From: Octopus vulgaris
Taxonomy: Eukaryota
DNA: 64,000 nt
Assembly: GCA_951406725.2 (NCBI GenBank)
Contig: OX597820.1
Coordinates: 65,286,001-65,350,000 of the forward strand
Direction: 5' to 3'
A program made the position numbers and the translations under genes. Every line of letters begins with the position of its first letter. Positions within the stretch are counted from its first letter, which is position 1. The notes under the pieces were generated by a model that worked only from the letters and a program-made list of their open reading frames with translations, made no database searches and had not been told where the DNA came from. Below, piece by piece: positions 2,551 to 58,775 of the stretch.

Positions 2551-3371
2551 AGCTAACAGCTGTCAATGTCTATTGGTATTTCGGGTCTTAATCCACCAGT
2601 GGAATTGGGGTAATTGATTGATACGATCATATTTGTAGGAAAAGCGTGGATAGAAAACTCAAGAGGATTACATTTCTAGAAGTATATTCTCTTCTGTCGC
2701 CCACTTCGTACTCAATGACCTTCAATTAGAGGATATGTTAATCACTGTCCCGTCGTTACTGGCTTGTGATACAAGGGGCTGCTGATCCTTTTACGTATGC
2801 AATGGCGGCAGTCGTTTCTCCGTCATCATTCCTTAAAGCGTGACCACTAAGTAAATCCATGTGGGATTTTCAATCTTTCCATCTTGTTTTAAGGGGCCTG
2901 TGATACGCTACAATCAGCTGATTAAATCGACGCCAGCATTTGACTTACAATTTATAATAGAATTAACATTAAACTAAGTTATAGATGAAAAACTTAGTAT
3001 CAAACAAGTCATCTAAATTAACCGAGGCTAGCTAAATAGAAATGCATGACCGCGTTGCATATTTAGTCATGCAATATGTATACTGAAACGATTATGTACG
3101 AGACAGAAGTCATTTCCACTAAATTGAGTCTGCTCTATTTTATTGACTAAGGAAGAATGAAAAGTAGTGCTGATTTTGGCAAAATATGAAGTCAGACATA
3201 AAACCAGAATTCAATACCACGTATCATTTCATCCGGCGCTCTAAAAGCTATGCGAATGGTTCACATATTCAGTAGGACGGACAGAGATAATTGCTTCATG
3301 CAGGCAGTTTGAATTGAAATTCAACAGAGATGGAGTAATAGAAATATAACTATTGGTCCTGGCGAATCTCT

Positions 3372-3779
3372 CTCTTTACTCTTTTACTCTTTTACTTGTT
3401 TCAGTCAGTTGACTGCGGCCATGCTGGAGCACCGCCTTTAGTCGAGCAAATCGACCCCGGGACTTATTCTTTGTAAGCCCAGTACTTATTCTATCGGTCT
3501 CTTTTGCCGAACCGCTAAGTGACGGGGACATAAACACACCAGCATCGGTTGTCAAGCAATGCGAGGGACAAACACAGACACACAAACATACACGCACATA
3601 TATATATATATATATATACATATATACGACGGGCTTCTTTTCAGTTTCCGTCTACCAAATCCACTCACAAGGCTTTGGTCGGCCCGAGGCTATAGTAGAA
3701 GACGACTTGCCCAAGATGCCACGTAGTGGGACTGAACCCGGAACCATGTGGTTGGTAGGCAAGCTACTTACCACACAGC
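3372..3779 (-). mobile_element. tRNA-derived SINE family A (octopus OR-type), near full length
   Basis: A box GGCTGTGTGG, B box GGTTCAGTCCC, CORE-like CTTGGGCAAG, internal (TA)n(TG)n, and 3' GGTGCTCCAGCATGGCCGCAGTC..GACTGAAACAAG(TAAAAGAG)n. Many copies occur in the window. Confidence 0.85.
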
Positions 3780-5329: not shown

Positions 5330-5376
5330 GCATGTATGTATGTATGTATGTATGTATGTATGTATGTATGTATGTA

Positions 5377-5576
5377 TATGAAGAAAAAATAGTCAAGATA
5401 GAAAATGCTGAAATAATTTTATAAAATACATTTCAGTACCGGTTTCAGTCATTGAGACTTTTTCAACTGTAAGTATGGAAAACAATTAAATTTTGGAAAA
5501 ATTAAAAATAAAAAGCTTTTTTAAAAAACTATTTGCAGGGTGTTCAAATACATGTGGCATTTTCTTTGTTACTGCC

Positions 5577-5652
<76 letters not shown>

Positions 5653-5994
5653 AGAAGTGGCATTTTACTTGTTTCTGCCTGTTTAATCTCTTTTGTTTAT
5701 TCTTGTGGGTTAGATCTGGAAACCACAAGAGTAAACAAGAGAGAGAGAGAGAAACAGGCAAAAACAAGGAAAATGCCACTTGTATTTGAACACTATACAA
5801 ATATTATTTTGAAAAAAACAACTTTTCTTTTAATTTTTCCAAAATTTAATTGTTTTCCATACTTACATTTGCAAAAATCTCAATCACTGAAACCGGTACT
5901 GAAATGTATTTTATAAAATTATTTTAGCATTTTCTATCTTGACTTTTTCCTTATATATCAACTCGTGTGTTCCTTTTCAACCTTCTACATATTG
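5377..5994. mobile_element. Fold-back non-autonomous PLE (Neptune-related) remnant with an HHR in each arm
   Basis: Imperfect inverted arms around AGATCT (~5712-5717). HHR at 5434-5469 (-): CAG-TTGAAAA-AGTC tcaat GACT-GAAA-CCGG-TA-CTG. A degenerate copy lies at ~5866-5901 (+). Right-only extension at 5958-5994. Flanked by (TATG)n and (TA)n. Confidence 0.75.
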
Positions 5995-6219: not shown

Positions 6220-6868
6220 GTGGTAATACGTGAATACCTGTATCGCTCAAAAACAAAAGTCAAAAATACTTCATTGCCACGGAAAAGTCACAAAATTAAA
6301 ACAAGCATGATAGGAAAGAATTTCAGTGAGCAATATAATCGTCTTATCTCTGCTAAGTCAGCAAAGTAATGCTGGTTAGTTTGATAGCATAATTTCGAAT
6401 TTAGCGCCAAACCTGCCAGCCAACGTATATATGCATACGTTTATACATATATATATTTCATACATAATTACAGGCAGATAAATAAATTCAAACACGCTTC
6501 AAAAGAAATACCCATACATACAGACACAATAAACAGTGATATATTACCAGTAACATACATACATACATTCTCAGATCAACATTTGCACACATGCAGCCTT
6601 ATACTCACATATATACACCCATAGGCGTATGTATTTCTGTATGAAAGCATAGATATGCGGAGAATAAAAATATAACATTAATGGTTTCTCCGTCGCTTTC
6701 GGCGATATGTGATCCAGGTGCATCATTAATTAGCCTAATGATAATTTCTCAATCTAAACATAATCTTCTTGTGAAATAATGAGTGATGGAGTTTTTGAGG
6801 TATCCAGGCCGTTGAGTTACAGGTAGAATCCATTCGACTGGCTTACAGTATTCGTCTATCCAGCCGCA

Positions 6869-11124: not shown

Positions 11125-11461
<337 letters not shown>

Positions 11462-12487: not shown

Positions 12488-12678
12488 CAGTTCTATATTT
12501 AACAAATGTGGAATTATGTACATTATTTACATTATTTACATTCCACGGATATTTGCCTCTCATCTTGATGGTTGTTATCACAACATTTCGGCTGATATAC
12601 CCTCCAGCCTTCTTCAGGTGTCTTGGGGAAATTTCGAATCTGGATTCTCATTCCTAAGGATTTTTTTCGATGTTATAA

Positions 12679-12739
<61 letters not shown>

Positions 12740-13067
12740 GTCGTTGTTATTGTTCAGGTCACTGCTTGGAATCGGACTTAGAATCTTGTGGTTAATAACG
12801 CGCGTTGTTAACTACTACGCCCACGGGTATATGGCGTAGTGGTTACGTGCGTGGACTACTAACCCCAAAATTCCGAGTTCGATACCAGGCAGTGACCTGA
12901 ACAATAATAATACTAATAACATCGAAAATACCCTAGGAATGAGGACCCACGTTCGAAATTTCCCCAAGACACCTGATGAAGGCTGGAGTGTATATCAGCC
13001 GAAACGTTTTGTTAACAACAGACAAGATGAGGACAAATATCCGTCGAATGTAAATAATGTAAATAAT
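12488..13067. mobile_element. Head-to-head fold-back of a tRNA-headed, hammerhead-containing SINE
   Basis: Right arm 12819-13067: A box TGGCGTAGTGG, B box GAGTTCGATACC, (AAT)n, HHR at 12969-13012, (AATGTAAAT)n. Left arm 12522-12821 is its reverse complement, with HHR at 12578-12621 (-). Left-only extension at 12488-12521. Confidence 0.85.
12969..13012 (+). ncRNA. Minimal type-I hammerhead ribozyme
   Basis: ACAC-CTGATGA-a-GGCTG gagtgtatat CAGCC-GAAA-CG-TT-TTGT. The left-arm copy reads CTGAAGA..GAAA-TG-TT-GTG. Confidence 0.75.
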
Positions 13068-16207: not shown

Positions 16208-16403
16208 GTTAATCCAAACATGAAAACACAAAGATAAAAAAACACAGCAACGCGAGGACGTGGAACAAGTGTAGTGCTATTGGACGCTCAAGAAAGGGAA
16301 GAATGAAGAAGAATATAACGTTTCGAGCGGACCTCTTCGTCAGAAACATAGGAAAGGAAAGATCCAAGGAAGGGAAGACGGGGGAAAAAGAATCGACAAC
16401 GAT
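16208..16403 (-). mobile_element. HHR mini-element, copy 2, abutting a LINE 3' end
   Basis: Starts GTTAATCCAAACATGAAAAC, as at 11255. HHR at 16313-16347 (-): CTGACGA-a-GAG gtccg CTC-GAAA-CG-TT. Confidence 0.7.
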
Positions 16404-18378
16404 CAGCTGCGGCCATGCTGATGCACCGCCGTTTTGTGTTACACTGTTATTACTAAGAGCCTACTCTAATATGTGGCACTTGGTGAAGAATGGAGTTTGA
16501 TATAGCTACTCTCATTTGCACCTCTTGCCGTGAGGTAGGTTCATCTGGGACTCTCGATAAGAAGAGGTCCAGCTTTGATTAAAAAAACCCTACATCTGCT
16601 TTGTGCAAGTTCCTCAGACTGTTTGGGAGAATATTAATTAGCTGTGGACCCTTGAAACCCAGGATGTTGCAGTAACTTGTCCTGAAAGGTGATGGCATTG
16701 TTAGGATCTTTGGCACTATGCAGTGTCGTCCCGTTCTGGCATTGGTGTAGCTTTCAATGCCAAGAGTTGGCACAATTCCTTCCAGGATCTTCCAGATATA
16801 TATTACTGCATACCTCTCCCGTCTTCTCTCCAGGGAGTAGAGTTTTAGGTGTTTCAACCTTTCCCAGTAACTGAGCTGTTGCGAAGAGACGGTCTTCTTT
16901 GTGAATCTTCTCTGGATTGCCCCAAGGTCCGCTGTTAATTTCACACTGGTAGGTGACCATAGCTGTGAGCAGTAATCCAGGCGGCTGTGGACGAATGTCC
17001 GCCAGAGGACCATCATGGTTTCCTTATCTCTGGTTCTGAATGTTTTTAGGATTCATCCAGCCATCCTGGTAATGTGCACTTGGAAAGCGGTATCATCACT
17101 CATGTCGATACCCAGGTCCCTCACTGACTTAGGCTCTGGGATTGAAATTCCTTATGGACCGGTGTACCCTGTAAGTTTAATATGCAGTTTTGGATGCTGG
17201 TAGCACAGGGCCTGGAATTTTTCAGCATTAAACTGCATATTATTACCCTCAACCCACCTGTAAATTGAGTCCAACCCCTGCTGCAGGTGTGCAACATCGC
17301 TGGGGCTCCGTATTTTCTGTGAGACTTTCGTATCATCTGCACAGCATGCCAGAGTGGCTATTCGGGCATTTGGGGGCATATCTGAAAGGGCCACTATAAA
17401 AAGCAGTGGTCCCAAGACAGTGCCCTGTGGAACACCGCTCACTATTTGTGTGTACATAGAGGTGGCTCCATTAGCCACTACTGCCTTTCTCCTATCTTTC
17501 AGGAAGTCATGTAACCATTCTCCAAGTTTTCCAGTTATGCCAAGGTCACGCAGTTTGTGGCATATCATACTATGACCCACCTTGTCAAAAGCTTTTGCAA
17601 AATCAAGGTATATTACGTCCACAATTGATTTGTTGAGTAACTGCCTCAACACGCAGTCATAATGTTGTAAGAGCTGGGTCAGGCAGCTCCTACCTGGTCG
17701 AAAATCATGCTGGGTATCACTCAGCAAGTTATTTACTTCAAGGAATGCGATTAGTTTCCCTCTGACTATCCGTTCCATGTCTTTGCTGATGTGTGAAGTC
17801 AGAGAGATAGGCCTATAGTTTTGGGCATCTGCTCTACTTCCCCCTTTCTGTATTGGGCATATTATTCCCTCCTTCAGCTTGCTTGGCAGTTTGCTATTTG
17901 TAAGAAGGCTGGAAGAGAATCTTGAGGGGTTTTGCCAGGGCATGCTTACACGCTTTGAGGAAGATTACTGGGAAACCATCAAGACCAGCAGTTAAGTTTG
18001 TGTCCACTTCATTTATAGCTAGTAGTATATCTTCTTCGCTAATGTCAATGTATTCCATTGTAACTGCCTCGCTGGTTATAAGTGAGGCGGCAAAGAAGCT
18101 CACTGGTTCGTTCACTTGTCTGTGTTCCAACGGGGTGGTAAAGACACTTTTGAACTGGTCATTCAGTATCTCACTGATCTTAGTTGGACTGTCTGTGAGG
18201 GAGCCATCCTTTTGGAGAAGGGGTCTTCTCTTGTAGTGTACTGAGGCTGTTTCTTTCGCGTTATGAAAGAAGGCCTTTGGGTTTGTCTAATGTTTTTATA
18301 ACTCAGGCTTCTTTGTCTGCTTTCCTCCTCACATAGGATTGTTGCAGCCTTTTTTCGATTTCCATCAGTGTTGTTTTT
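16404..18378 (-). mobile_element. 5'-truncated, frameshifted CR1-like LINE (RT)
   Basis: ORFs 17152-17943 and 16579-17016 contain NYRPISLTS, QHDFRPGRSC, YLDFAKAFDKV, SGVPQGTVLGPLLF, CADD, RLDYCSQLWSP and LYSLERRRER. Confidence 0.9.
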
Positions 18379-18659: not shown

Positions 18660-18862
18660 ATAATTTTTAAAAAAAGCGAGAAAAGGTCAAGAAAAAAATC
18701 AACAACGCGAGGAAGTGGTACATGCAAAATATTAATAATACGCTCAGAGAAGGAAAGAAAGAGTGGTTGTGTTACGTTTCGAGCAAGGCTGTTCTTCGAA
18801 AGAAAGGAAAGTCCCAAGGAAAAGAATGAAGAAACGAAAATAGTCCACGAGTAGTCACAATT
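18660..18862 (-). mobile_element. HHR mini-element, copy 3 (degenerate)
   Basis: CAACAACGCGAGGA..ACGCTCAG..TTACGTTTCGAGC..GTCACA is homologous to 11255-11461. The core has decayed to TCGAAGA. Confidence 0.6.
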
Positions 18863-28306: not shown

Positions 28307-28547
28307 TACATATATATATATATATATAACAATAATAAATCTCTGAGCGAGGTATAAACAGTAACTGCTCTGTAATATAAGCGGGATCAGCCATCTGAAT
28401 GTGGCTAGGGACAGGGCGAGGTTGTGGGGGTGTTACTAATGAATTTAGCCTCAGGCGACTATAGACGACACCAGAAGAGCCGACACCATCACGGTGTCCT
28501 TGCTAGCCTGCAAAGGGAGATCAGCCTCCCCGAAGATACGGATGCTA

Positions 28548-28590
28548 CACACGGACCGGTTTCGAGGTAGTCGCCTCTCGTCAGCGCATG
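28548..28590 (-). ncRNA. Canonical type-I hammerhead ribozyme, monomer 1
   Basis: CAUGCG-CUGACGA-GAGG cgacua CCUC-GAAA-CCGG-UC|CGUGUG. All core nucleotides are canonical, with a GUC cleavage triplet. Confidence 0.9.
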
Positions 28591-28907
28591 GCAAGCACCG
28601 TTCTCCGTTGAGGGACTTCCTCTACAGGCTAGATATATATAGATTTTCACAGTAAACACAGTCACTGGCGTAGAAAATCTGTTCGATAACAATAATAAAT
28701 CTCTGAGCGAGGTATAAACAGTAACTGCTTTGTAATATAAGCGGGATCAGCCATCTGAATGTGGCTAGGGACAGGGCGGGGTTGTGGGGGTGTTACTGAT
28801 GCATTTAGCCCCAGGCGACTATAGGCGTCACCAGAAGAGCCGACACCATCACGGTGTCCTTGCTAGCCTGCAAAGGGAGATCAGCCTCTCTGAAGATACG
28901 GATGCTT

Positions 28908-28950
28908 CACACGGACCGGTTTCGAGGTAGTCGCCTCTAGTCAGCGCATG
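28908..28950 (-). ncRNA. Hammerhead, monomer 2 (G8U core mutation)
   Basis: Core reads CUGACUA. Confidence 0.75.
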
Positions 28951-29267
28951 GCAAGCACCGTTCTCCGTTGAGGGACCTCCTCTACAGGCTAGATATATAT
29001 AGATTTTCACAGTAAACACAGTCACTGGCGTAGAAAATCTGTTCGATAACAATAATAAATCTCTGAGCGAGGTATAAACAGTAACTGCTTTGTAATATAA
29101 GCGGGATCAGCCATCTGAATGTGGCTAGGGACAGGGCGGGGTTGTGGGGGTGTTACTGATGCATTTAGCCCCAGGCGACTATAGGCGTCACCAGAAGAGC
29201 CGACACCATCACGGTGTCCTTGCTAGCCTGCAAAGGGAGATCAGCCTCCCCGAAGATACGGATGCTA

Positions 29268-29310
29268 CACACGGACCAGTTTCGAGGTAGTCGCCTCTCG
29301 TCAGCGCATG
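29268..29310 (-). ncRNA. Hammerhead, monomer 3 (stem III palindrome changed to CUGG)
   Basis: CUGACGA..GAAA-CUGG-UC. Confidence 0.8.
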
Positions 29311-29627
29311 GCAAGCACCGTTCTCCGTTGAGGGACTTCCTCTACAGGCTAGATATATATAGATTTTCACAGTAAACACAGTCACTGGCGTAGAAAATCT
29401 GTTCGATAACAATAATAAATCTCTGAGCGAGGTATAAACAGTAACTGCTCTGTAATATAAGCGGAATCAGCCATCTGAATGTGGCTAGGGACAGGGCGGG
29501 GTTGTGGGGGTGTTACTGATGCATTTAGCCCCAGGCGACTATAGACGTCACCAGAAGAGCCGACACCATCACGGTGTCCTTGCTAGCCTGCAAAGGGAGA
29601 TCAGCCTCCCCGAAGATACGGATGCTA

Positions 29628-29670
29628 CACACGGACCGGTTTCGAGGTAGTCGCCTCTCGTCAGCGCATG
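29628..29670 (-). ncRNA. Canonical hammerhead, monomer 4
   Basis: Identical to the monomer 1 motif. Confidence 0.9.
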
Positions 29671-29835
29671 GCAAGCACTGTTCTCCGTTGAGGGACTTCC
29701 TCTTTGCAGGCTAGCAAGGACACCGTGATGGTGTCGGCTCTTCTGGTGACGTCTATAGTCGCCTGGGGCTAAATGCATCAGTAACACCCCCACAACCCCG
29801 CCCTGTCCCTAGCCACATTCAGATGGCTGATCCCG

Positions 29836-29881
<46 letters not shown>

Positions 29882-35000: not shown

Positions 35001-35059
35001 TGTATGTGTATATATCAAACACGTGTGTGTGTGCACGCGTGGGTATTTGTATCTATATA

Positions 35060-35551
35060 CAGTTGCGGCCAAAATGTTCAGAACGGCATTGTTTTCGTCA
35101 GAAAAGTAAGTATAAGTTTTTATCAAAGTAGTTTTATATTCTATAATCTTCATAGACAATAAATACAATATTAATTGTTATTGTCTGAGATTCTGGTGTA
35201 ATTTGAGAGGATAATGCAAAAGTTATGGATGATTTAGTGATTTACTACAAAACCCATGGCGGCCAAAATGATCAGAACGGTTGCTTTTACTCCGTGTTTT
35301 AATATATTTAACCGGCGAACCCTAATGTTTTGAATTTGTTTACCTGAAGGTTCGTTTACTATACATTAGTAAGAATATTTGCAGTGTACTTTGTTAATAT
35401 CCTCTCAAATTACACCAAAATCTCAGGCAATAACAAATAATATCGTATTTATTCTCTGTGAAAATTATAGAATATAAAACAACTTTGATAAAAACTTATA
35501 CTTACTTTTCTGACGAAAACAATGCCGTTCTGCACATTTTGGCCGCCACTG
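35060..35551. mobile_element. Tc1/mariner-type MITE (IR/DR style), TA target
   Basis: TA|CAGTTGCGGCCAAAATG...CATTTTGGCCGCCACTG|TA, with ~150-bp imperfect TIRs and an internal direct repeat GGCGGCCAAAATGATCAGAACGG at ~35258. Confidence 0.85.
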
Positions 35552-35594
35552 TATATATATGTGTGTGTATGTGTGTGTGTGTGTATGTGTGTAA

Positions 35595-36429: not shown

Positions 36430-37950
36430 ATCCTTAAATCCTTTAAAATGCTTCAGCCTGAAGGCTGCGGCCATGCTGGGGCACCACCGTTGAATGAGCT
36501 ACACTAGTATGTGAAACCACCTCTGAGACGTGGCACTTGATCAACAAGGGAGTTCGACGCCGCTGGCCGCATCTGTGTTTCCTGCCGAGAGGTAGGTTCA
36601 TCTGGAACCCCTGACAAGAAGAGATCCAGTTTACTTTTAAAGAAACCCACATCCACACCATGCAGGTCTCTCAGGCATTTAGGAAGGTTATTAAAGAGCT
36701 GTGGTTCCCTGAAACCCAAGCTGTTGTAGTATCTGGTCCTGTATTTTGATGGTGATGTTGGGATCTTTGGCATCATGCAGTGGCGCCCCGTTCTGCTGTT
36801 GGGGTAACTTTCAATGCCAACATTTGAGACAAGACCCTCTAGGATTTTCCAGATGTATATCACTGAATATCTCTCCCGCCTTCGCTCCAGGAAGAAGAGT
36901 TTTAATACTTTCAATCTTTCCCAGTAGCTGATATGTTGCATTGAGACGATCTTCTTGGTGCAGCTTCGTTGGATTGCTTCGAGTTCTGCTGTTAACTTAA
37001 TATTGTGTGATGACCATAGTTGGGCGCAGTAGTCCAAGTAAGTGGCTGAGGACGAATGTCTTCCAAAGGACCATCAATGTTTACTTCTCTCTTGTTCTGA
37101 AATTTCAGAGAATCCATCCAGCTAGCCGTCTGAATTTTATTACCAAATTAGTAATATGCACTTGGAAAGATGCTTCATTGCTCATGTCAATGCCCAGGTC
37201 ACGCACTGATTTTGACACAGGAATTAAATTCTTCCCGGGTCAGTGTATCCGGTCTGCATGTCGTTCACCTTTGTGTGCCGGTAGCGCTGGGCTTGGAACT
37301 TCCCTGCATTAAACTGCATGTTGTTGTCCTGAGCCCACCTGTATATTGTATCCAACTCTCGTTGCAGGTGTGCAACATTTCCAAGGTTTTGTATTGTGTG
37401 AGAGACTTTTGTGTCATCTGAATAGCTAGCAAGGGTGGCCATCTTAGCAACTGAGGGCATGTCTGAAAGGGCCACTATGAACAGCAGTGGCTCCAAGACA
37501 GTGCCCTATGAAACCCCGCTTGTTATTTGTGTTTTCTTGGAGGTGGCTCCATTGGCCACAACTGCCTGTCTTCTATCTTTTAGGAAGTTGTGCAGCCACT
37601 CTCCTGTTTTCCGCCTATGCCGAGATCACGCATTTGTGACAGATCATACCATGGTCGAATTTATCAACAGCTTTTGCAGAGTCGCGATATATTACATCAA
37701 CACTTGAGTCATTTAGTAGCAGTTTTAACACCCAGTCATAATGTTGCAGGAGCTGTGTTAGACAGCTTCTACCTGGTCGAAATCTATGCTGGGTGTCAGT
37801 CAGCAAATCATTTCCTTCAAGGAACATGATTAGTTTCTTGCGGACTATTCGTTCCATGACTTTGCTGATGTGTGAGGTCAGAGAGATAGGCCTATAATTT
37901 TTAGCATCTGCTCTGCTTCCTCCCTTATGGACAGGGTATATTATCGCTTC
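36430..37950 (-). mobile_element. 5'-truncated CR1-like LINE, same family as 16404-18378, with intact 3' tail
   Basis: NYRPISLTSH, QHRFRPGRSC, PLLFIVALSD, YSDD, DYCAQLWS and LERRRERY. The 3' end is GGTGCCCCAGCATGGCCGCAGCCTTCAGGCTGAAGCA(TTTAAGGA)n. Confidence 0.9.
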
Positions 37951-42426: not shown

Positions 42427-42572
42427 CTACAACATCGAAAAATACCTTAGGAATGAGAACCCAGGTTCGAAATTTCCCCAAGGCACCTGATGAGGGCGGG
42501 ATGGTATTTCAGCCGAAACGTTGTGTTAGCAACAATCAAGATGAGGACAAATATCCGTCAAACGTAAATTAT

Positions 42573-44318: not shown

Positions 44319-44886
44319 CATTGTTATTATTATTGTTATTATTATTATTGTTATTATTATTATTATTATTATTATTGTTATTATTATTGTTATTATTATT
44401 ATTATTATTAATATTATTATTATTATTATTGCAAATGTCAACAGTTTTCAAGACGTATTTCGCAGTCTCGGCCATCACATCCGTGCCGTGAACTGAGTTC
44501 GTACAAGTATGTTTTGCTGTAAAATCCATACATATAAAACAATAGAAATAATCTTAGTGCAGATGCTTTACAACGAAACTTGGCCCATGACGCCGTCGTG
44601 GAATTTCATAATCAGTATTATTAATATTAAATAAACAACTGTAACTCTTAAAGCATTTGCCACATGTATTAGCAGTTGACCTTAACGACAAGCGGCAAGA
44701 AATTAATTATTATGATATAAAGTGGCTGTGCTTCCTTGGTGACTTTATCTTGTGATATAATAATGTAAAAACCATGTCGTTGTTATGCTAAGATTTCGTC
44801 TCAAAATACTTGAGTCTGACTGCGCCATATTTGTTTTTATCACCAGGTGTGTGTGTATATATGTGTGTGTGTATCTGTCTGTGTGA

Positions 44887-44925
<39 letters not shown>

Positions 44926-48715: not shown

Positions 48716-48806
48716 CATATGTATTGCAAAAGAGGGGAGCGTTTTTCTAGACAGGAAAAAATATAGGCAAATTTGCTATTGAAATTGCATCTAAAATTGA
48801 AAAACT

Positions 48807-49156
48807 TGTAATTGGTTAGAATAAATCTATGTCCATCTATACCAAACTAGTTTCAACAATATTTCTTTGTTTATCAATAGTAAACATTTTAAATTATGAA
48901 TTAGAACATATTTAAAAGTTTCAATGTTGACAAATTAAAATGGTCATAACAGGCAAATTTAGAATTATGAATTACAAAAGCGTGTTTAGAAATTTCGATG
49001 TTGACATGTTCATAACCGTCAAAAATATTAAAATAGAGCAACAATTTGTTTGAATGCTTAAAGTTCATTAGTGATAGTAGTGATCCATTGATAAATAAAA
49101 AATATTGTTGAAATTAGTTTGGTATATATGTAAATAAATTCATTTTAAACAATTAC
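48807..49156. repeat. Imperfect ~70-bp inverted repeat pair (possible old MITE or fold-back)
   Basis: TATACCAAACTAGTTTCAACAATATTT..TTTATCAAT versus ATTGATAAA..AAATATTGTTGAAATTAGTTTGGTATA. Confidence 0.55.
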
Positions 49157-49164
49157 AGAGTATT

Positions 49165-49570
49165 TGTGGGCCAGTTTATATGAGGGAGGTTAAAATCACC
49201 CACCACTAGTAAGTTTCCGGAGTTGTATTTTTTTGAAGGAAGGACTTGATTTTGTTGAGGCACTCTTCAAAACACTTTAGAGGTGCTTGGGGAGGCCTGT
49301 AAAAACCAACAATGATTATCTCTTTGGCCTTATTGAATAGTGATATAGATTCACAACAGCCATTGTAAAATACAATCTTGGCATCAACTGAAAAGGAGTC
49401 ATGGAGAAAGATGTCTGTCCCCACCCCCTTTATTTCGGTCTGTCCGATCTACACAGACGATGGTGAAATCTTTTATTTTCACTTCGGCATCCATATGTAT
49501 GCTCTTTAGGTGAGTTTTAGTAAGGATAAATAAAGGGAAGCAATGTGCCGTTTTGGCAAGCCAATTCTCT
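49165..49570 (-). mobile_element. LINE ORF2 APE-endonuclease fragment (CR1-like)
   Basis: FILTKTHL..DR..RNKGGG..CESI..IIVGFYRPP..GDFNLPHINW. Confidence 0.75.
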
Positions 49571-52371: not shown

Positions 52372-53133
52372 TCAGTACACATATGCATATATACATAGTG
52401 TAAATACAATGAATACTGAAAACAGGACACACCAGAAAGAACACTTAACACATAAGATGTTTGTAACATACATTTCAGTTTTTAAACAAATCTCTTTTGT
52501 ACAAACATTTACGCACACACACAAACACACACATAGCCGTGGGTGTATTCATATATATGCATGGAGTATTCGATAATTATAATACATAACCTTGAGGTGG
52601 AGATAATTTTAATAAATCAATAGTTTATATTGTATGTTATTTGATATATATGCATTTGTCTATGTTGTTCAAATGCATGCCACTAGTCACACTGCGCTAT
52701 TGCTCTTAGCTCATCTTTATATATATAGTTGCGTGTATATGTGTATATATGTGCCTCTGTGTGTGTGTATGTGAGTATGTACGTATGTATGACAATTCAT
52801 ACGTACATATGACAATTCATAAATTAAATTTTAAATTTTATTTTTATTTTTTATTATTTCCAACTTATAATTATAATCACTATGATTTAATTTTTTTCTT
52901 GCATTTTGCATTGTTTTTCGAAACGTACGTATACATTGAATCCAGTTTACTAATAAATTCTGTTTCTGTTTCCCCATCTCTTCTCCATTGTTATACTTGT
53001 TTATGCTATATTCTTATACCTATAACGAATCTCCTATACATATAAATATATACATGAATATATATATATATATATAGATATATGTATATATATACATACA
53101 TATACATATATATATACATATACATATACATAT

Positions 53134-53167
<34 letters not shown>

Positions 53168-53953
53168 ATATATACATATATATGTATATAGTAAGGAAAA
53201 ATTTTTTAAAAATGCAGAATGCTCAAATGAAAGAAAATTTTAATAAAATGAGAAAATGATAAAATATATAAATATATATTTATTCAACCGGTTTTCGTCA
53301 TTGTATGACTTGTCAAGAATATTTATGTTTTAAGAAGTTTTTTTAAAAATTAGAAAGGGGAAAAAAAGAAAATTGCATTGTTTTTTGTAAAAGAATAATG
53401 ATAAAAATGTACAAAAATTGAAAAATAAGTTCTCCGATACATTGTGAGTTCGTTGTGTATCTTGAGTTTTATGGTTGTTTACCAAAAAATTACCTTGAGG
53501 TGTTAAGATCCAAAGGGATTAAGAGCATGTGATGTGTTGTGTTGTTAAATTCAGCATGTTGCAGGACAGGAAGTAGTAGTAATTGTGGTCCTGGTTCTTC
53601 AGTTCCTGTGTTGTGAGTAAGGGGAGACAACTCTTTTGAGTTCTTCAATAAAACCCAAATTATAAAACTATCATTTTAGCTTCATTTGCATTATCTTTTT
53701 TACATAATTGCTTGTTAACTTAACTTTCAGATTTTAACACTTTATTTATATTATTTTCTAATAATATAAATCTGCATAGACAATTGCATTTCAAATTGTC
53801 ATATCATTTATAATAAAAATGATAGTAATAACAACAATAGTAAAAATGATATTTAAAGAATATAAGTTTTAGCTTGAAGTGATGAATGCATGGTATCTTT
53901 ATATATTTGTGTTAGTCCATCCATGAAGAGTGAGGTAGAGAAAGGAAGTTTGA

Positions 53954-55243
53954 TCAACGAGGAGTTTGCATATTAAGTTGTGTTTGGAATTTTTCAATAA
54001 AGAGATTCTCCTTGTTAATTCTCTCTTGTGTGGTGATCCCGTCTTTACATTGGTAGAAGGGGAATATATAGAATTTGGGGTTTAAGTCTTTAGCACATGA
54101 GTCTAAGTGGTCACTCAGTGGAATTTGTCGGTATTCCGGGAGATTTATTTGTTCTTTATGCACCGTTACTCGTTTACGTAACGGGAGACTCGTTTGTCCA
54201 ACATAATTATGTTGGCAACCAGCGCATGTGAGAACGTAGATAAGGTTCTCGGAGGAACAGGAGAAGTTAGTCTTGATTTTAAACTTCGTACCTTGTTTGA
54301 AGGTAAATTCAGAGCCTTCAAGTAGAAAGGGGCAGGTACCACAGTTTGAGCGTGCACATTTTTTTACTGTTGGGGGTGGATGTGGTGTGTGAAGTTTGGC
54401 ATTTGTCAAGAGTTTTTTTAAAGATTTGTGTTGCCTTTTGCATTTGAGGATTTTGTGTGTATTTATAATGTTTTTCATTTTTGGGTCTGTTGACAGTAGA
54501 CTGAGGTTTTGTATGATTGTGGTGTATGCTTCGATATTTTTGGGGTTGTGGGTGGAAATGTATGGAAGTATTTTGAGGTTGTGTGTGGTGTTAGGTTGGG
54601 TGGTTTTCAGTGTAGTGTTGTCTAGTTCTTTGGCGCGTTTTATTCCATACTCTATAAGGGTGGAGGGATATTGACGTTGTAATAGTGTTTTTTTGAGGTC
54701 TTGAAGGCGTATTTCTCGTGTTTTTGGATCCGAGACAATGGTGCATACCCTTTTAGCTAAATTGAAAGGGATATTTGTCTTGGTGTGTTTTGGGTGGCAT
54801 GAACTAAAGAGGAGGTATTGTTGTGAGTCTGTAGGTTTGTGGTAGATGTCTGTTATGATTTGGTTCTTAGGTGTTTTTATAATTAGGAGGAATGGGAGAT
54901 GATGTTTGCTTAATTCCATAGTGAATTGGATGTTGGGATGTATGTTGTTTAGTATGGTTTTGAATTCCAGGAGTTTTTCATAAGGTTCTTTCCATATGAT
55001 GAAACAATCATCTAAATACCTTTTCCAGTTTTCCATTAGGTAGGTGTGGAAAACATGTCCAACTTTCTGGCTTGATATTTCATAGAGTGACAGTTCGAAG
55101 TAACCCATTATGAGGTTCGCAAGGACTGGTGCAGCCTTGGTACCCATCGCAATGCCACATTTTTGACGGTAGTGTGTGTCGTCGAAGAGAAAAAAATTGT
55201 TTGTCAGAATGAACTTAAGAGATTCTGTAATAAAAGACTTGTT
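53954..55243 (-). pseudogene. Inverted partial copy of the same PLE ORF (C-terminal RT + GIY-YIG)
   Basis: Protein identical to the + copy except a 6-nt deletion (LPFLLII vs LPFLDLLII) and CTIVS vs CTNVS. Confidence 0.9.
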
Positions 55244-57232
55244 CTCCCCTTTACCCCAAGCAAAACCAAGGTAAAATCCAATTTCAGTAAGGAAGAATGG
55301 GAAAACCTACGTGACATACAACTGGATAAAAACCTCACCATCAAAGAAGCGGACAAAGGGAGTGCTGTGGTCCTTATGGACACGGAATTTTATAAACACC
55401 TAGTTTTCTCCATGCTTAACAATAACATTTTCTATGAGGTTATTAACAACTACAAACAGCAAAAAACAATCAGAAACCTCACCACACTCATACGCCAACA
55501 CAGTCAGGGACTCACAGAAAAAGAAAGGGATTATATCACCATTTTCAAATGCAAGCCCAGCCTTTTTTATGGCCTTCCTAAAATCCATAAAAACAAATAC
55601 ATCACCGAAGCCTGCAAACTCTCCACTGACATCCACATCAACATCAAAGCACCGGAGGACCTAAAACTAAGGCCCATCGTGGCTGGGACCTCCTGTGAAA
55701 CACACCGCCTGAGTAACTTCCTAGACATCCTTTTGAAACCTTTCCTTACCCACATCAAAAGTTTCATTAGGGATGATCTGGACATGCTCAAACACCTCCC
55801 GAAAACAGTTAACGAGGAGGCACTCCTGGTATCCTTTGATGTCATCAACCTCTACACCAACATTCCACATGAGTATGGTATAGAGGCAATTGACTTCTGG
55901 CTAGAAAAACACCCAGAGACATTCCCTGACCGCATTAACAAGTCTTTTATTACAGAATCTCTTAAGTTCATTCTGACAAACAATTTTTTTCTCTTCGACG
56001 ACACACACTACCGTCAAAAATGTGGCATTGCGATGGGTACCAAGGCTGCACCAGTCCTTGCGAACCTCATAATGGGTTACTTCGAACTGTCACTCTATGA
56101 AATATCAAGCCAGAAAGTTGGACATGTTTTCCACACCTACCTAATGGAAAACTGGAAAAGGTATTTAGATGATTGTTTCATCATATGGAAAGAACCTTAT
56201 GAAAAACTCCTGGAATTCAAAACCATACTAAACAACATACATCCCAACATCCAATTCACTATGGAATTAAGCAAACATCATCTCCCATTCCTTGATCTCC
56301 TAATTATAAAAACACCTAAGAACCAAATCATAACAGACATCTACCACAAACCTACAGACTCACAACAATACCTCCTCTTTAGTTCATGCCACCCAAAACA
56401 CACCAAGACAAATATCCCTTTCAATTTAGCTAAAAGGGTATGCACCAATGTCTCGGATCCAAAAACACGAGAAATACGCCTTCAAGACCTCAAAAAAACA
56501 CTATTACAACGTCAATATCCCTCCACCCTTATAGAGTATGGAATAAAACGCGCCAAAGAACTAGACAACACTACACTGAAAACCACCCAACCTAACACCA
56601 CACACAACCTCAAAATACTTCCATACATTTCCACCCACAACCCCAAAAATATCGAAGCATACACCACAATCATACAAAACCTCAGTCTACTGTCAACAGA
56701 CCCAAAAATGAAAAACATTATAAATACACACAAAATCCTCAAATGCAAAAGGCAACACAAATCTTTAAAAAAACTCTTGACAAATGCCAAACTTCACACA
56801 CCACATCCACCCCCAACAGTAAAAAAATGTGCACGCTCAAACTGTGGTACCTGCCCCTTTCTACTTGAAGGCTCTGAATTTACCTTCAAACAAGGTACGA
56901 AGTTTAAAATCAAGACTAACTTCTCCTGTTCCTCCGAGAACCTTATCTACGTTCTCACATGCGCTGGTTGCCAACATAATTATGTTGGACAAACGAGTCT
57001 CCCGTTACGTAAACGAGTAACGGTGCATAAAGAACAAATAAATCTCCCGGAATACCGACAAATTCCACTGAGTGACCACTTAGACTCATGTGCTAAAGAC
57101 TTAAACCCCAAATTCTATATATTCCCCTTCTACCAATGTAAAGACGGGATCACCACACAAGAGAGAATTAACAAGGAGAATCTCTTTATTGAAAAATTCC
57201 AAACACAACTTAATATGCAAACTCCTCGTTGA
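55244..57232 (+). CDS. PLE reverse transcriptase + Cys linker + GIY-YIG endonuclease (5'-truncated, uninterrupted frame)
   Basis: RT motifs KEADKG, FYGLPKIHK, LRPIV, SFDVINLYTNI, GIAMGT..APVLANL, RYLDD, LPFLD and YHKPT. Linker CARSNCGTC is Neptune-like. Endonuclease: LIYVLTCAGCQHNYVGQT..R..H..E..LN. Confidence 0.92.
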   Translation, partial: LPFTPSKTKVKSNFSKEEWENLRDIQLDKNLTIKEADKGSAVVLMDTEFYKHLVFSMLNNNIFYEVINNYKQQKTIRNLTTLIRQHSQGLTEKERDYITIFKCKPSLFYGLPKIHKNKYITEACKLSTDIHINIKAPEDLKLRPIVAGTSCETHRLSNFLDILLKPFLTHIKSFIRDDLDMLKHLPKTVNEEALLVSFDVINLYTNIPHEYGIEAIDFWLEKHPETFPDRINKSFITESLKFILTNNFFLFDDTHYRQKCGIAMGTKAAPVLANLIMGYFELSLYEISSQKVGHVFHTYLMENWKRYLDDCFIIWKEPYEKLLEFKTILNNIHPNIQFTMELSKHHLPFLDLLIIKTPKNQIITDIYHKPTDSQQYLLFSSCHPKHTKTNIPFNLAKRVCTNVSDPKTREIRLQDLKKTLLQRQYPSTLIEYGIKRAKELDNTTLKTTQPNTTHNLKILPYISTHNPKNIEAYTTIIQNLSLLSTDPKMKNIINTHKILKCKRQHKSLKKLLTNAKLHTPHPPPTVKKCARSNCGTCPFLLEGSEFTFKQGTKFKIKTNFSCSSENLIYVLTCAGCQHNYVGQTSLPLRKRVTVHKEQINLPEYRQIPLSDHLDSCAKDLNPKFYIFPFYQCKDGITTQERINKENLFIEKFQTQLNMQTPR

Positions 57233-57864
57233 TCAAACTTCCTTTCTCTACCTCACTCTTCATGGATGGACTAACACAAATATATAAAGATACCATGCAT
57301 TCATCACTTCAAGCTAAAACTTATATTCTTTAAATATCATTTTTACTATTGTTGTTATTACTATCATTTTTATTATAAATGATATGACAATTTGAAATGC
57401 AATTGTCTATGCAGATTTATATTATTAGAAAATAATATAAATAAAGTGTTAAAATCTGAAAGTTAAGTTAACAAGCAATTATGTAAAAAAGATAATGCAA
57501 ATGAAGCTAAAATGATAGTTTTATAATTTGGGTTTTATTGAAGAACTCAAAAGAGTTGTCTCCCCTTACTCACAACACAGGAACTGAAGAACCAGGACCA
57601 CAATTACTACTACTTCCTGTCCTGCAACATGCTGAATTTAACAACACAACACATCACATGCTCTTAATCCCTTTGGATCTTAACACCTCAAGGTAATTTT
57701 TTGGTAAACAACCATAAAACTCAAGATACACAACGAACTCACAATGTATCGGAGAACTTATTTTTCAATTTTTGTACATTTTTATCATTATTCTTTTACA
57801 AAAAACAATGCAATTTTCTTTTTTTCCCCTTTCTAATTTTTAAAAAAACTTCTTAAAACATAAA

Positions 57865-57905
57865 TATTCTTGACAAGTCATACAATGACGAAAACCGGTT
57901 GAATA
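57865..57905 (+). ncRNA. Variant minimal hammerhead (U3-A8) in the PLE 3' region; mirror copy at 53281-53321 (-)
   Basis: TATTC-TTGACAA-GTCA tacaa TGAC-GAAA-ACCGGTT-GAATA. Confidence 0.7.
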
Positions 57906-58042
57906 AATATATATTTATATATTTTATCATTTTCTCATTTTATTAAAATTTTCTTTCATTTGAGCATTCTGCATTTTTAAAAAAATTTTTCCTTACTTAT
58001 CATTTCTCCACGTGCGGTCAACACAACCCCACCATTTATTGA

Positions 58043-58044
<2 letters not shown>

Positions 58045-58134
<90 letters not shown>

Positions 58135-58135
58135 C

Positions 58136-58174
<39 letters not shown>

Positions 58175-58183
58175 TATGTATAT

Positions 58184-58217
<34 letters not shown>

Positions 58218-58255
58218 GTATATATATATATATATATACATACATATACATACAT

Positions 58256-58302
<47 letters not shown>

Positions 58303-58359
58303 TATGTATACATGTGTATATATATAAATATATATATATATATACATATATATGTATAC

Positions 58360-58398
<39 letters not shown>

Positions 58399-58430
58399 TA
58401 TGTATGTATATATATATATATATAATTTAT
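58045..58430. repeat. (TA)n-rich microsatellite flanking the PLE
   Basis: Directly visible. Its counterpart lies at ~53040-53190. Confidence 0.95.
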
Positions 58431-58432
58431 AT

Positions 58433-58775
58433 AAGTAACGATAAGATAGTTAATTTAAAATAAAATAACGAACTTATCAGGTGGTCAGCATGGAAAAAAT
58501 AACCTTCAAAGGTAATAATTATTGAAATTATAAATTAGGGTGTCTACGAGATACCACCATGCTGAAAATAGCAGCCATGAACCGACTTTAAAATCACCGA
58601 CAGTTTTCTTATAGCAACATGGAGAAGATGAAACTAGTAATTTTTTACTAGTGTCATCTTGTCTCCTTGTCTTTTCTCCATGTTGCTATATGAAAACTTA
58701 AGGTGATTTTAAAGACGGTTCATGGCTGCTATTTTCAGCATGGTGGTATCTCGTAGATACCCTAATTTATAATTT
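58433..58775. repeat. Fold-back element with ~100-bp arms and a nested central hairpin
   Basis: Arms at 58525-58626 and 58674-58775; centre ACTAGTAA tttt TTACTAGT; left-only extension at 58433-58524. Confidence 0.8.

Follow-up and report, generated by a model that had tools for sequence, protein, structure and literature searches.

A young Neptune-type Penelope-like element inserted as an inverted pair in Octopus vulgaris, with an upstream frame probably joined to its reverse transcriptase by a −1 frameshift

What produced the near-perfect palindrome of 4.85 kb that lies between two (TA)n tracts in a 64,000-nt stretch of the Octopus vulgaris genome (contig OX597820.1, positions 65,286,001 to 65,350,000), and what does the complete element behind it look like? 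We call the whole stretch the window and number positions from its first letter. The palindrome consists of two 5'-truncated copies, joined head to head, of a young, Neptune-type, (TA)n-targeting Penelope-like element (PLE), an insertion shape that has been published before. The PLE family of the window element is called family A below; B, C, D and E are other families of the same genome. Taken together, the observations are best explained by such a pair, likely laid down in one event, from a family in which a first open reading frame (ORF1) and a reverse transcriptase–endonuclease (RT-EN) frame are joined by a likely −1 frameshift. We put the probability of this explanation as a whole at about 72%.

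The inverted repeat has arms at 53190–55243 and 55937–57997, with a 693-nt spacer between them. Comparison of the arms showed two coding differences: six nucleotides of the right arm (56291–56296) are missing from the left arm, where the break falls at 54889/54890, and one base is substituted (54738 versus 56448). Arms, spacer and coding differences were exactly as claimed in a preliminary description of this DNA, to which we add a third difference, a 1-nt homopolymer change in the 3' untranslated region (UTR) near 57979. Both ends meet (TA)n-rich tracts, again as described; a tail of ~47 nt precedes (TA)n on the right copy only, and the left copy joins (TA)n tail-less. Beyond the microsatellites the flanks are not mirrored (best local match 19 nt). 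A stop-to-stop frame of 713 amino acids (aa) begins with 51 codons of antisense left arm, and the remaining 662 aa are native (Table 1). The native frame matched the RT family PF00078 (E = 1.9e-7), and a weaker match to the GIY-YIG family lies below Pfam's cut-off. The frames had been called uninterrupted and lacking the native N-terminus; both arms are indeed stop-free, the left one with a two-residue deletion, but the loss also takes a separate ORF1 and a frameshift-type junction. Lacking ORF1 and the slippery site as well as 110 codons of the RT frame, the window copy cannot be autonomous and would have been dead on arrival.

We searched the genome (2.8 Gb, 227 contigs) for family A DNA with a 2.7-kb query, which gave 3767 first-look candidates, 40 of them scored, and 51 matches listed. 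Nearly the whole query was covered at 98–100% by 34 of the 51 matches listed, the window included, and thus at least 33 other near-full copies exist. An open RT-EN frame of at least 680 codons is kept at 25 of 30 family A loci. The full-length unit measures ~4.6 kb plus a 5' pseudo-long terminal repeat (pLTR), and 11 full-length copies were 0.19–0.85% off the column majority (L045 was omitted from an initial 12 because its anchor was not found). Copies finish at one of two fixed 3' positions, one including the tail and one lacking it, and TA repeats lie directly at these ends or a few bases off at 30/30 loci. These counts bear out the earlier claim of a very young PLE and establish that near-identical and full-length copies occur elsewhere in the genome. 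At least three other young sister PLE families, reached via ORF1, are present in the same genome. Three young two-ORF families (L073–L085) have an ORF1 of 431, 466 and 447 aa and an RT 57–59% identical to that of family A, and both frames are open in the assembly at L075, L077–L079 and L081–L084.

In full-length family A copies an ATG stands ~30 nt past the pLTR tail and opens the long ORF1. At L071 ORF1 is intact (497 aa) and ends in NHFLD...KHHR-stop, 12 codons past T TTT TTA. The RT-EN frame overlaps the end of ORF1 in the −1 phase and has no ATG ahead of the N-terminal PLE motifs; the overlap contains U UUU UUA (T TTT TTA) in the phase of ORF1. That is, an X XXY YYZ heptamer in ORF1 phase is combined with a second ORF at −1, the arrangement expected of a −1 programmed frameshift site. 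Most assembled family A copies show two further frame breaks, at C-runs. We rejected these as real lesions, since short-read contigs revealed homopolymer undercalls: on L033 the contigs added one C at 6303 (two covering runs, X1 and X4) and one C at 6846 (4/4 runs), and in the four runs the T6 run was without indel and free of joints. Once L033 is corrected by both Cs, ORF1 stays in phase to the heptamer after 485 codons and the RT frame runs onward at −1. Because the contigs fix the C-runs yet leave the T-run unchanged, the −1 offset is not an assembly error.

The ORF1 core was modelled by AlphaFold as three long helices (pLDDT 95), and the C-terminal 200 aa are low-complexity. ORF1 had no Pfam family, no sequence match in the Protein Data Bank (PDB) and no usable Atlas match; a Foldseek search with the core model gave none at E ≤ 0.001, and VIA-align returned generic helical bundles only (best Z 8.8, root-mean-square deviation 6.5), with no specific fold match. 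Judging from the predicted helical core and the low-complexity P/H/Y/N/Q tail, the ORF1 protein (ORF1p) is probably an RNA-packaging scaffold.

The junction recurs beyond family A. Families B, C and D and the older family E carry TTTTTTAG in phase, 66–75 nt ahead of the NLS/T motif, and an in-phase T6A is found in all five families of the O. vulgaris genome (A–E), each reading TTTTTTAG; in one family C copy (L080) the junction run is mutated. We fetched 82 outside loci, of which 36 were scanned for the junction and 34 had the anchor (left out were L116, where the match is not N-terminal, and L155, which has no GLKF anchor); most of the other 46 do not extend to the junction. An in-phase T6 run was present in 23 of the 34, followed by AG in 15 and by GT, GG, GC or AT in eight, and two more loci had T5 instead. 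The non-AG forms are spread over several branches and would suit a slippery site with its Phe-Leu codons. An RT tree of 33 rows, built from relatives without named references and leaving out six rows shorter than 200 aa, contained a clade with 100/100 support whose 26 members comprised 24 with in-phase T6, one with T5 and one without; none of the seven rows outside the clade had the run. Runs of six or more T occur upstream of the junction only three times in 19,003 nt, and inside RT they are unphased (7/7/10).

The upstream ORFs belong together as well. Their ORF1 core is homologous, with domain E values down to 4e-42 for outside loci, and an xFL motif stands near the end of each of five database homologs (391–437 aa), with fusion to RT in 0/5 (in a search that is weak for long proteins). 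At 13 of 23 sites the ORF1 stop and the heptamer are 12–14 codons apart (nine at exactly 12), versus 8% expected, and the intervening sequence has diverged; these sites, 18 of the 23 outside ones plus five of our own, are related and not independent. L092 has two in-phase candidate heptamers, T TTT TTG and A AAT TTA, 24 nt apart. P0036, P0049, P0060, L171 and L172 are PLE proteins or loci assigned to genome bins of bacteria, among them bivalve symbionts; the bins probably contain DNA of the host.

We consider it probable that RT-EN is produced as an ORF1 fusion by −1 ribosomal frameshifting at U UUU UUA, a judgement made from sequence. Most ribosomes would terminate 12 codons into the overlap, yielding ORF1p, and a minority would slip by −1 to give an ORF1-RT-EN fusion of ~1,255 aa, in the style of gag-pol. 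Several results weigh against this. A −1 programmed site is expected to carry a stimulatory structure 5–9 nt downstream, but simple folding and a crude pseudoknot search found no conserved hairpin or pseudoknot past the heptamer, the mean minimum free energy z-score being −0.66, with 5/23 sites below −1.5 and family A at −0.6 to −1. The heptamer is mutated in 5 of 59 family A site matches (redundant loci counted). An in-frame ATG lies between the heptamer and the RT motifs in families C and D and at several outside loci, so that RT could arise there without a shift. That the short-read runs are RNA is a guess, and rare splice forms are lost in contigs. An alternative without frameshifting would have the T-run serve as a 3' splice acceptor, or RT translated by reinitiation or from an ATG of its own. 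It gains from the missing stimulatory structure, from these ATGs in C and D, from the identical reading TTTTTTAG in all five O. vulgaris families, and from introns known in PLEs (PMC8557442, PMC3846280). We nevertheless hold it to be improbable. An acceptor is argued against because 8 of the 23 in-phase outside sites, in several separate branches, have no AG. ORF1 moreover remains uninterrupted as far as the run, across ~200 codons of poor conservation, and its stop lies 6–33 codons beyond; family A has no consensus-like donor in the needed phase; and the contigs of four runs contain no joints. A start at an own ATG is opposed by families A, B and E, which have none ahead of the RT motifs. As for what might stimulate frameshifting, the ORF1 stop 12–14 codons away could act if a terminating ribosome parked the next one on the slippery site; such a ribosome queue is speculative, and we think it unlikely.

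The origin of the inverted copy was judged from other loci. At 17 of 24 loci with long context a 3'-anchored inverted copy was present, each with its own breakpoint (12/19 when five loci picked as inverted pairs are excluded), which agrees with the earlier view of the palindrome as a PLE inverted partial copy; inverted 5'-truncated copies and one-sided tails are typical of PLEs (PMC8557442). The tail stands on exactly one end at 15 of the 17 inverted loci, on both at one and on neither at one (binomial 0.0012 against independent 50:50). In the window, three substitutions are common to both arms and absent from 28 other copies (L009 left out), and each arm has one private lesion, indicating that both arms derive from one source. 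A Poseidon PLE cuts and extends both strands in vitro, and two RT start sites define its tail (PMC11167929); the one-sided tail pattern agrees with this scheme. We therefore lean, by a modest degree, towards two target-primed events on one source RNA, likely in one insertion event. The endonuclease would cut both strands within (TA)n, both cut ends would serve as primers for copying the same RNA, with synthesis starting at the tail site from one end and ~47 nt inside it from the other, and both cDNAs would end early and then join at their truncated ends. We rate it as less likely that the inverted arm arose when the first cDNA folded back and primed itself, or when synthesis switched template onto that cDNA (or antisense RNA). 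Self-priming has been proposed for inverted PLE junctions (PMC3846280), and it too accounts for the shared private substitutions, but a fold-back copy is expected to reproduce the same end, whereas each outer end in (TA)n is an exact 3' end of the element, and the two differ by the tail at 15/17 loci; the window junction (55243/55244) has no palindrome, just 1-nt microhomology. That the palindrome is a fold-back read or an assembly artefact seems to us very improbable. Near-identical arms with common private variants would also result from a fold-back read, homopolymer errors occur in the assembled copies of family A, and the window junction is known from the assembled sequence. The flanks, however, are unmirrored, a 693-nt spacer is present, one arm alone has the tail, and the arms are set apart by a substitution and a 6-nt deletion that is not a homopolymer change. 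Because 17 of 24 loci show the same inversion at other breakpoints, an artefact is unlikely, and this indirect evidence favours a real insertion in the window.

We assigned family A to a clade from its motifs. RT is followed by a C-terminal GIY-YIG endonuclease, and a pLTR or partial tandem, an optional tail and an inverted 5'-truncated copy are present, as in endonuclease-bearing (EN+) PLEs. The CX2-5CxxC linker of Neptune elements precedes GIY-YIG (CARSNCGTC), and CCHH and the canonical DKG are present. Compared by eye with rows in Figs S1–S2 of PMC8557442, the RT3/4 region is like Neptune and not Nematis, and the linker-GIY spacer is ~25 aa here and in the Neptune rows of Fig. S2, versus fewer than 10 in the Nematis rows; the Cys linker itself is common to Nematis as well. 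Naiad, Hydra and Penelope/Poseidon, as defined in PMC8557442, are excluded because of the RT-then-EN order, DKG, C-x4-C-x2-C and CCHH: the endonuclease is not N-terminal and DKG is not DKA as in Naiad, Hydra has no CCHH and carries DKT and CxCX5C, and Penelope/Poseidon has no Cys-rich RT-EN linker. Canonical EN+ PLEs (Penelope/Poseidon, Neptune, Nematis) have a single ORF. Because full-length family A copies have two overlapping ORFs, we file the family as a Neptune-type variant and not as a canonical member. The placement is a probable one, drawn from motifs and from the by-eye comparison with published alignments; Neptune itself is paraphyletic (PMC8557442). The Neptune-type Cys linker and (TA)n target of the preliminary description are upheld.

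The pLTR holds a putative hammerhead motif, recognised by eye, with a U3-A8 core, a stem II, a palindrome and an atypical cleavage position. The U3-A8 variant is known from Schistosoma PLEs (PMC4209133), and sister family C has a clean U3-A8 minimal motif, also by eye. An Rfam scan of the window gave no hammerhead among 150 of 258 rows, which were microsatellite-driven and sub-threshold. Three hammerhead-bearing repeat types occur in the window. At 28326–29842 lies a 360-bp tandem (3.8 copies, 97%) with a minus-strand hammerhead core, a 141-bp inverted partial copy and (TA)n on both sides; its family is like non-LTR retrozymes, and a genome search gave 1666 first-look candidates, which often combine tandem and inverted copies. 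A monomer of ~190 bp, flanked by (TA)n and carrying a minimal hammerhead-like core, is found at 11263–11450, 16216–16401 and 18680–18810 (1906 first-look candidates; a PLE ORF nearby at 0/20 loci), and a minimal hammerhead element flanked by (TTA)n, not (TA)n, at 12545–12659, 12931–13045 and 42445–42559.

Family A had been named the best candidate driver of these hammerhead ribozyme (HHR) elements, a claim that the data do not support. In its favour, (TA)n surrounds both the 360-bp tandem and the ~190-bp monomer, the 360-bp element makes PLE-like tandem plus inverted copies, and retrozymes have been proposed as PLE derivatives (bioRxiv 10.64898/2026.07.22.740005). Against this, five HHR pieces of the window matched families A–D over 11–19 nt, which is chance level, and no PLE ORF was found within 1.5 kb at any of 32 loci of two HHR-element types. 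The window HHR cores are C3-G8 and not U3-A8, one element type sits in (TTA)n, and the HHR elements look older (best matches 94–98% and 95–97% versus 98–100%). At least three other young PLE families exist, and Octopus Naiads likewise favour (TA)n according to a published supplement. Mobilisation by family A is improbable; some PLE probably moves the window HHR elements, in line with the same bioRxiv proposal, and nothing points to family A specifically.

Table 1. Coordinates of the parts of the inverted PLE pair in the window.
Feature	Position	Strand	Basis
Left (TA)n-rich target microsatellite	53035..53189	.	sequence
Inverted copy, more deeply 5'-truncated, tail-less, with private 6-nt deletion	53190..55243	-	arm comparison
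Stop-free 3' part of RT-EN frame, from residue 231 of 661 on, without first RT aspartate motif	53954..55243	-	
693-nt spacer, the main-copy part not reached by the inverted copy; 1-nt microhomology (T at 55243)	55244..55936	+	
Native RT-GIY-YIG frame, 662 aa, stop-free; without ORF1, slippery site and first 110 RT-frame codons	55244..57232	+	
DKG motif	55352..55360	+	
RT catalytic RYLDD	56159..56173	+	
RT-endonuclease linker C-x4-C-x2-C, CARSNCGTC	56828..56854	+	compared with Fig. S2 rows
GIY-YIG core (LIYVLTC..YVGQT) and CCHH residues	56942..57187	+	PF01541 E = 0.0015, below Pfam's cut-off
3' UTR; its 3' part is the 5' pLTR of full-length copies	57233..57997	+	
Hammerhead-like motif, U3-A8 core variant, palindromic helix III, atypical cleavage position; mirrored in left arm	57865..57905	+	by eye
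~47-nt PLE tail, this end only	57998..58044	+	
Right (TA)n-rich target microsatellite	58045..58433	.	sequence

Other repeats share the window. Two decayed copies (74%) of a LINE-type RT, which we take from its motifs to be CR1/L2-like, lie at 16406–17865 and 36464–37944. The first of these, a 1.5-kb repeat, is a LINE-type RT fragment unrelated to the element, and a weak EN-like match at 44602–44907 was noise. To the right of the element, at ~58541–58760, is a near-perfect hairpin of ~220 bp that resembles miniature inverted-repeat transposable elements; inverted pairs similar to it occur at 5375–5957, 35051–35560 and 48800–49165. An abundant SINE-like repeat of ~400 bp, which presumably is akin to Octopus SINEs, is found at 3370–3779 and many other places.

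The palindrome is known PLE behaviour, and family A is an additional member of the group. With its two ORFs, family A deviates from the published view that canonical EN+ PLEs have just one (PMC8557442; PMC6431247; PMC6515669). The Fig. 1 legend of PMC8557442 and its preprint mention an ORF1 with a coiled coil, separable by a frameshift with pseudoknot in some PLE types, and that figure may already draw an ORF1 frameshift for Neptune. We found no description of an ORF1 separated from RT by a frameshift for Neptune in a search of the literature and supplements that did not extend to subscription papers or Repbase; the passages of PMC5408684, PMC5718144 and PMC12602865 contained nothing on it. 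Tentatively, and at slightly less than even odds, the data may reveal a widespread, active EN+ Neptune subclade with a retrovirus-like economy, in which ORF1p is made in excess and RT-EN only as a −1 fusion, overturning the single-ORF picture. If so, "complete" PLE ORFs of ~750 aa in databases would be missing their first half, with gene callers shortening such elements; any reconstitution would need ORF1; and PLEs and retroviruses would ration their enzyme by common means. Because its copies are very young, its target is strictly (TA)n and its 3' ends are fixed at two positions, family A would permit biochemical tests, like those done for Poseidon, of how inverted PLE insertions arise and of the long-proposed link of microsatellite targeting to the Cys linker.

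Family A resembles retroviral gag-pol −1 frameshifting in its heptamer, its phase and the placing of a structural ORF ahead of an enzyme ORF, and U UUU UUA is also the HIV-1 slippery site; unlike in that system, no strong downstream stem was found in family A, and searches of Pfam, PDB and protein folds with ORF1 gave nothing gag-like. Among PLEs, the types with an ORF1 frameshift are reportedly the Athena/Terminon elements, as described by Arkhipova et al. in 2017. Athena is endonuclease-deficient and telomeric, whereas family A has its own GIY-YIG and inserts in (TA)n. The ORF1-type PLEs of Fig. 1 in PMC8557442 likewise have a helical ORF1 split from RT by a frameshift, but are drawn with a pseudoknot, and none was found in family A. 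With the Neptune clade as presented in that paper, family A shares RT then C-terminal GIY-YIG, CX2-5CxxC, CCHH, DKG, pLTR, one-sided tail, inverted 5'-truncated copy and (TA)n target; the family A type differs from single-ORF canonical EN+ PLEs by an ORF1 of 430–500 aa with the RT frame at −1, and its tail measures ~47 nt versus the 30–40 quoted there. The killifish Neptune repeat.CL27 (PMC12602865), compared by description only, also has two ORFs, but its ORF1 is 420 nt long and non-overlapping, and the passages describing it mention no frameshift. Poseidon PAc of Anolis (PMC11167929) shares the AT-rich target and the two tail-separated 3' ends, and has a hammerhead in the pLTR, where family A has its putative motif; as described there, PAc has a single ORF and no Cys linker, and its tail lies inside the start of the ORF, whereas the family A tail ends ~30 nt ahead of the ORF1 ATG.

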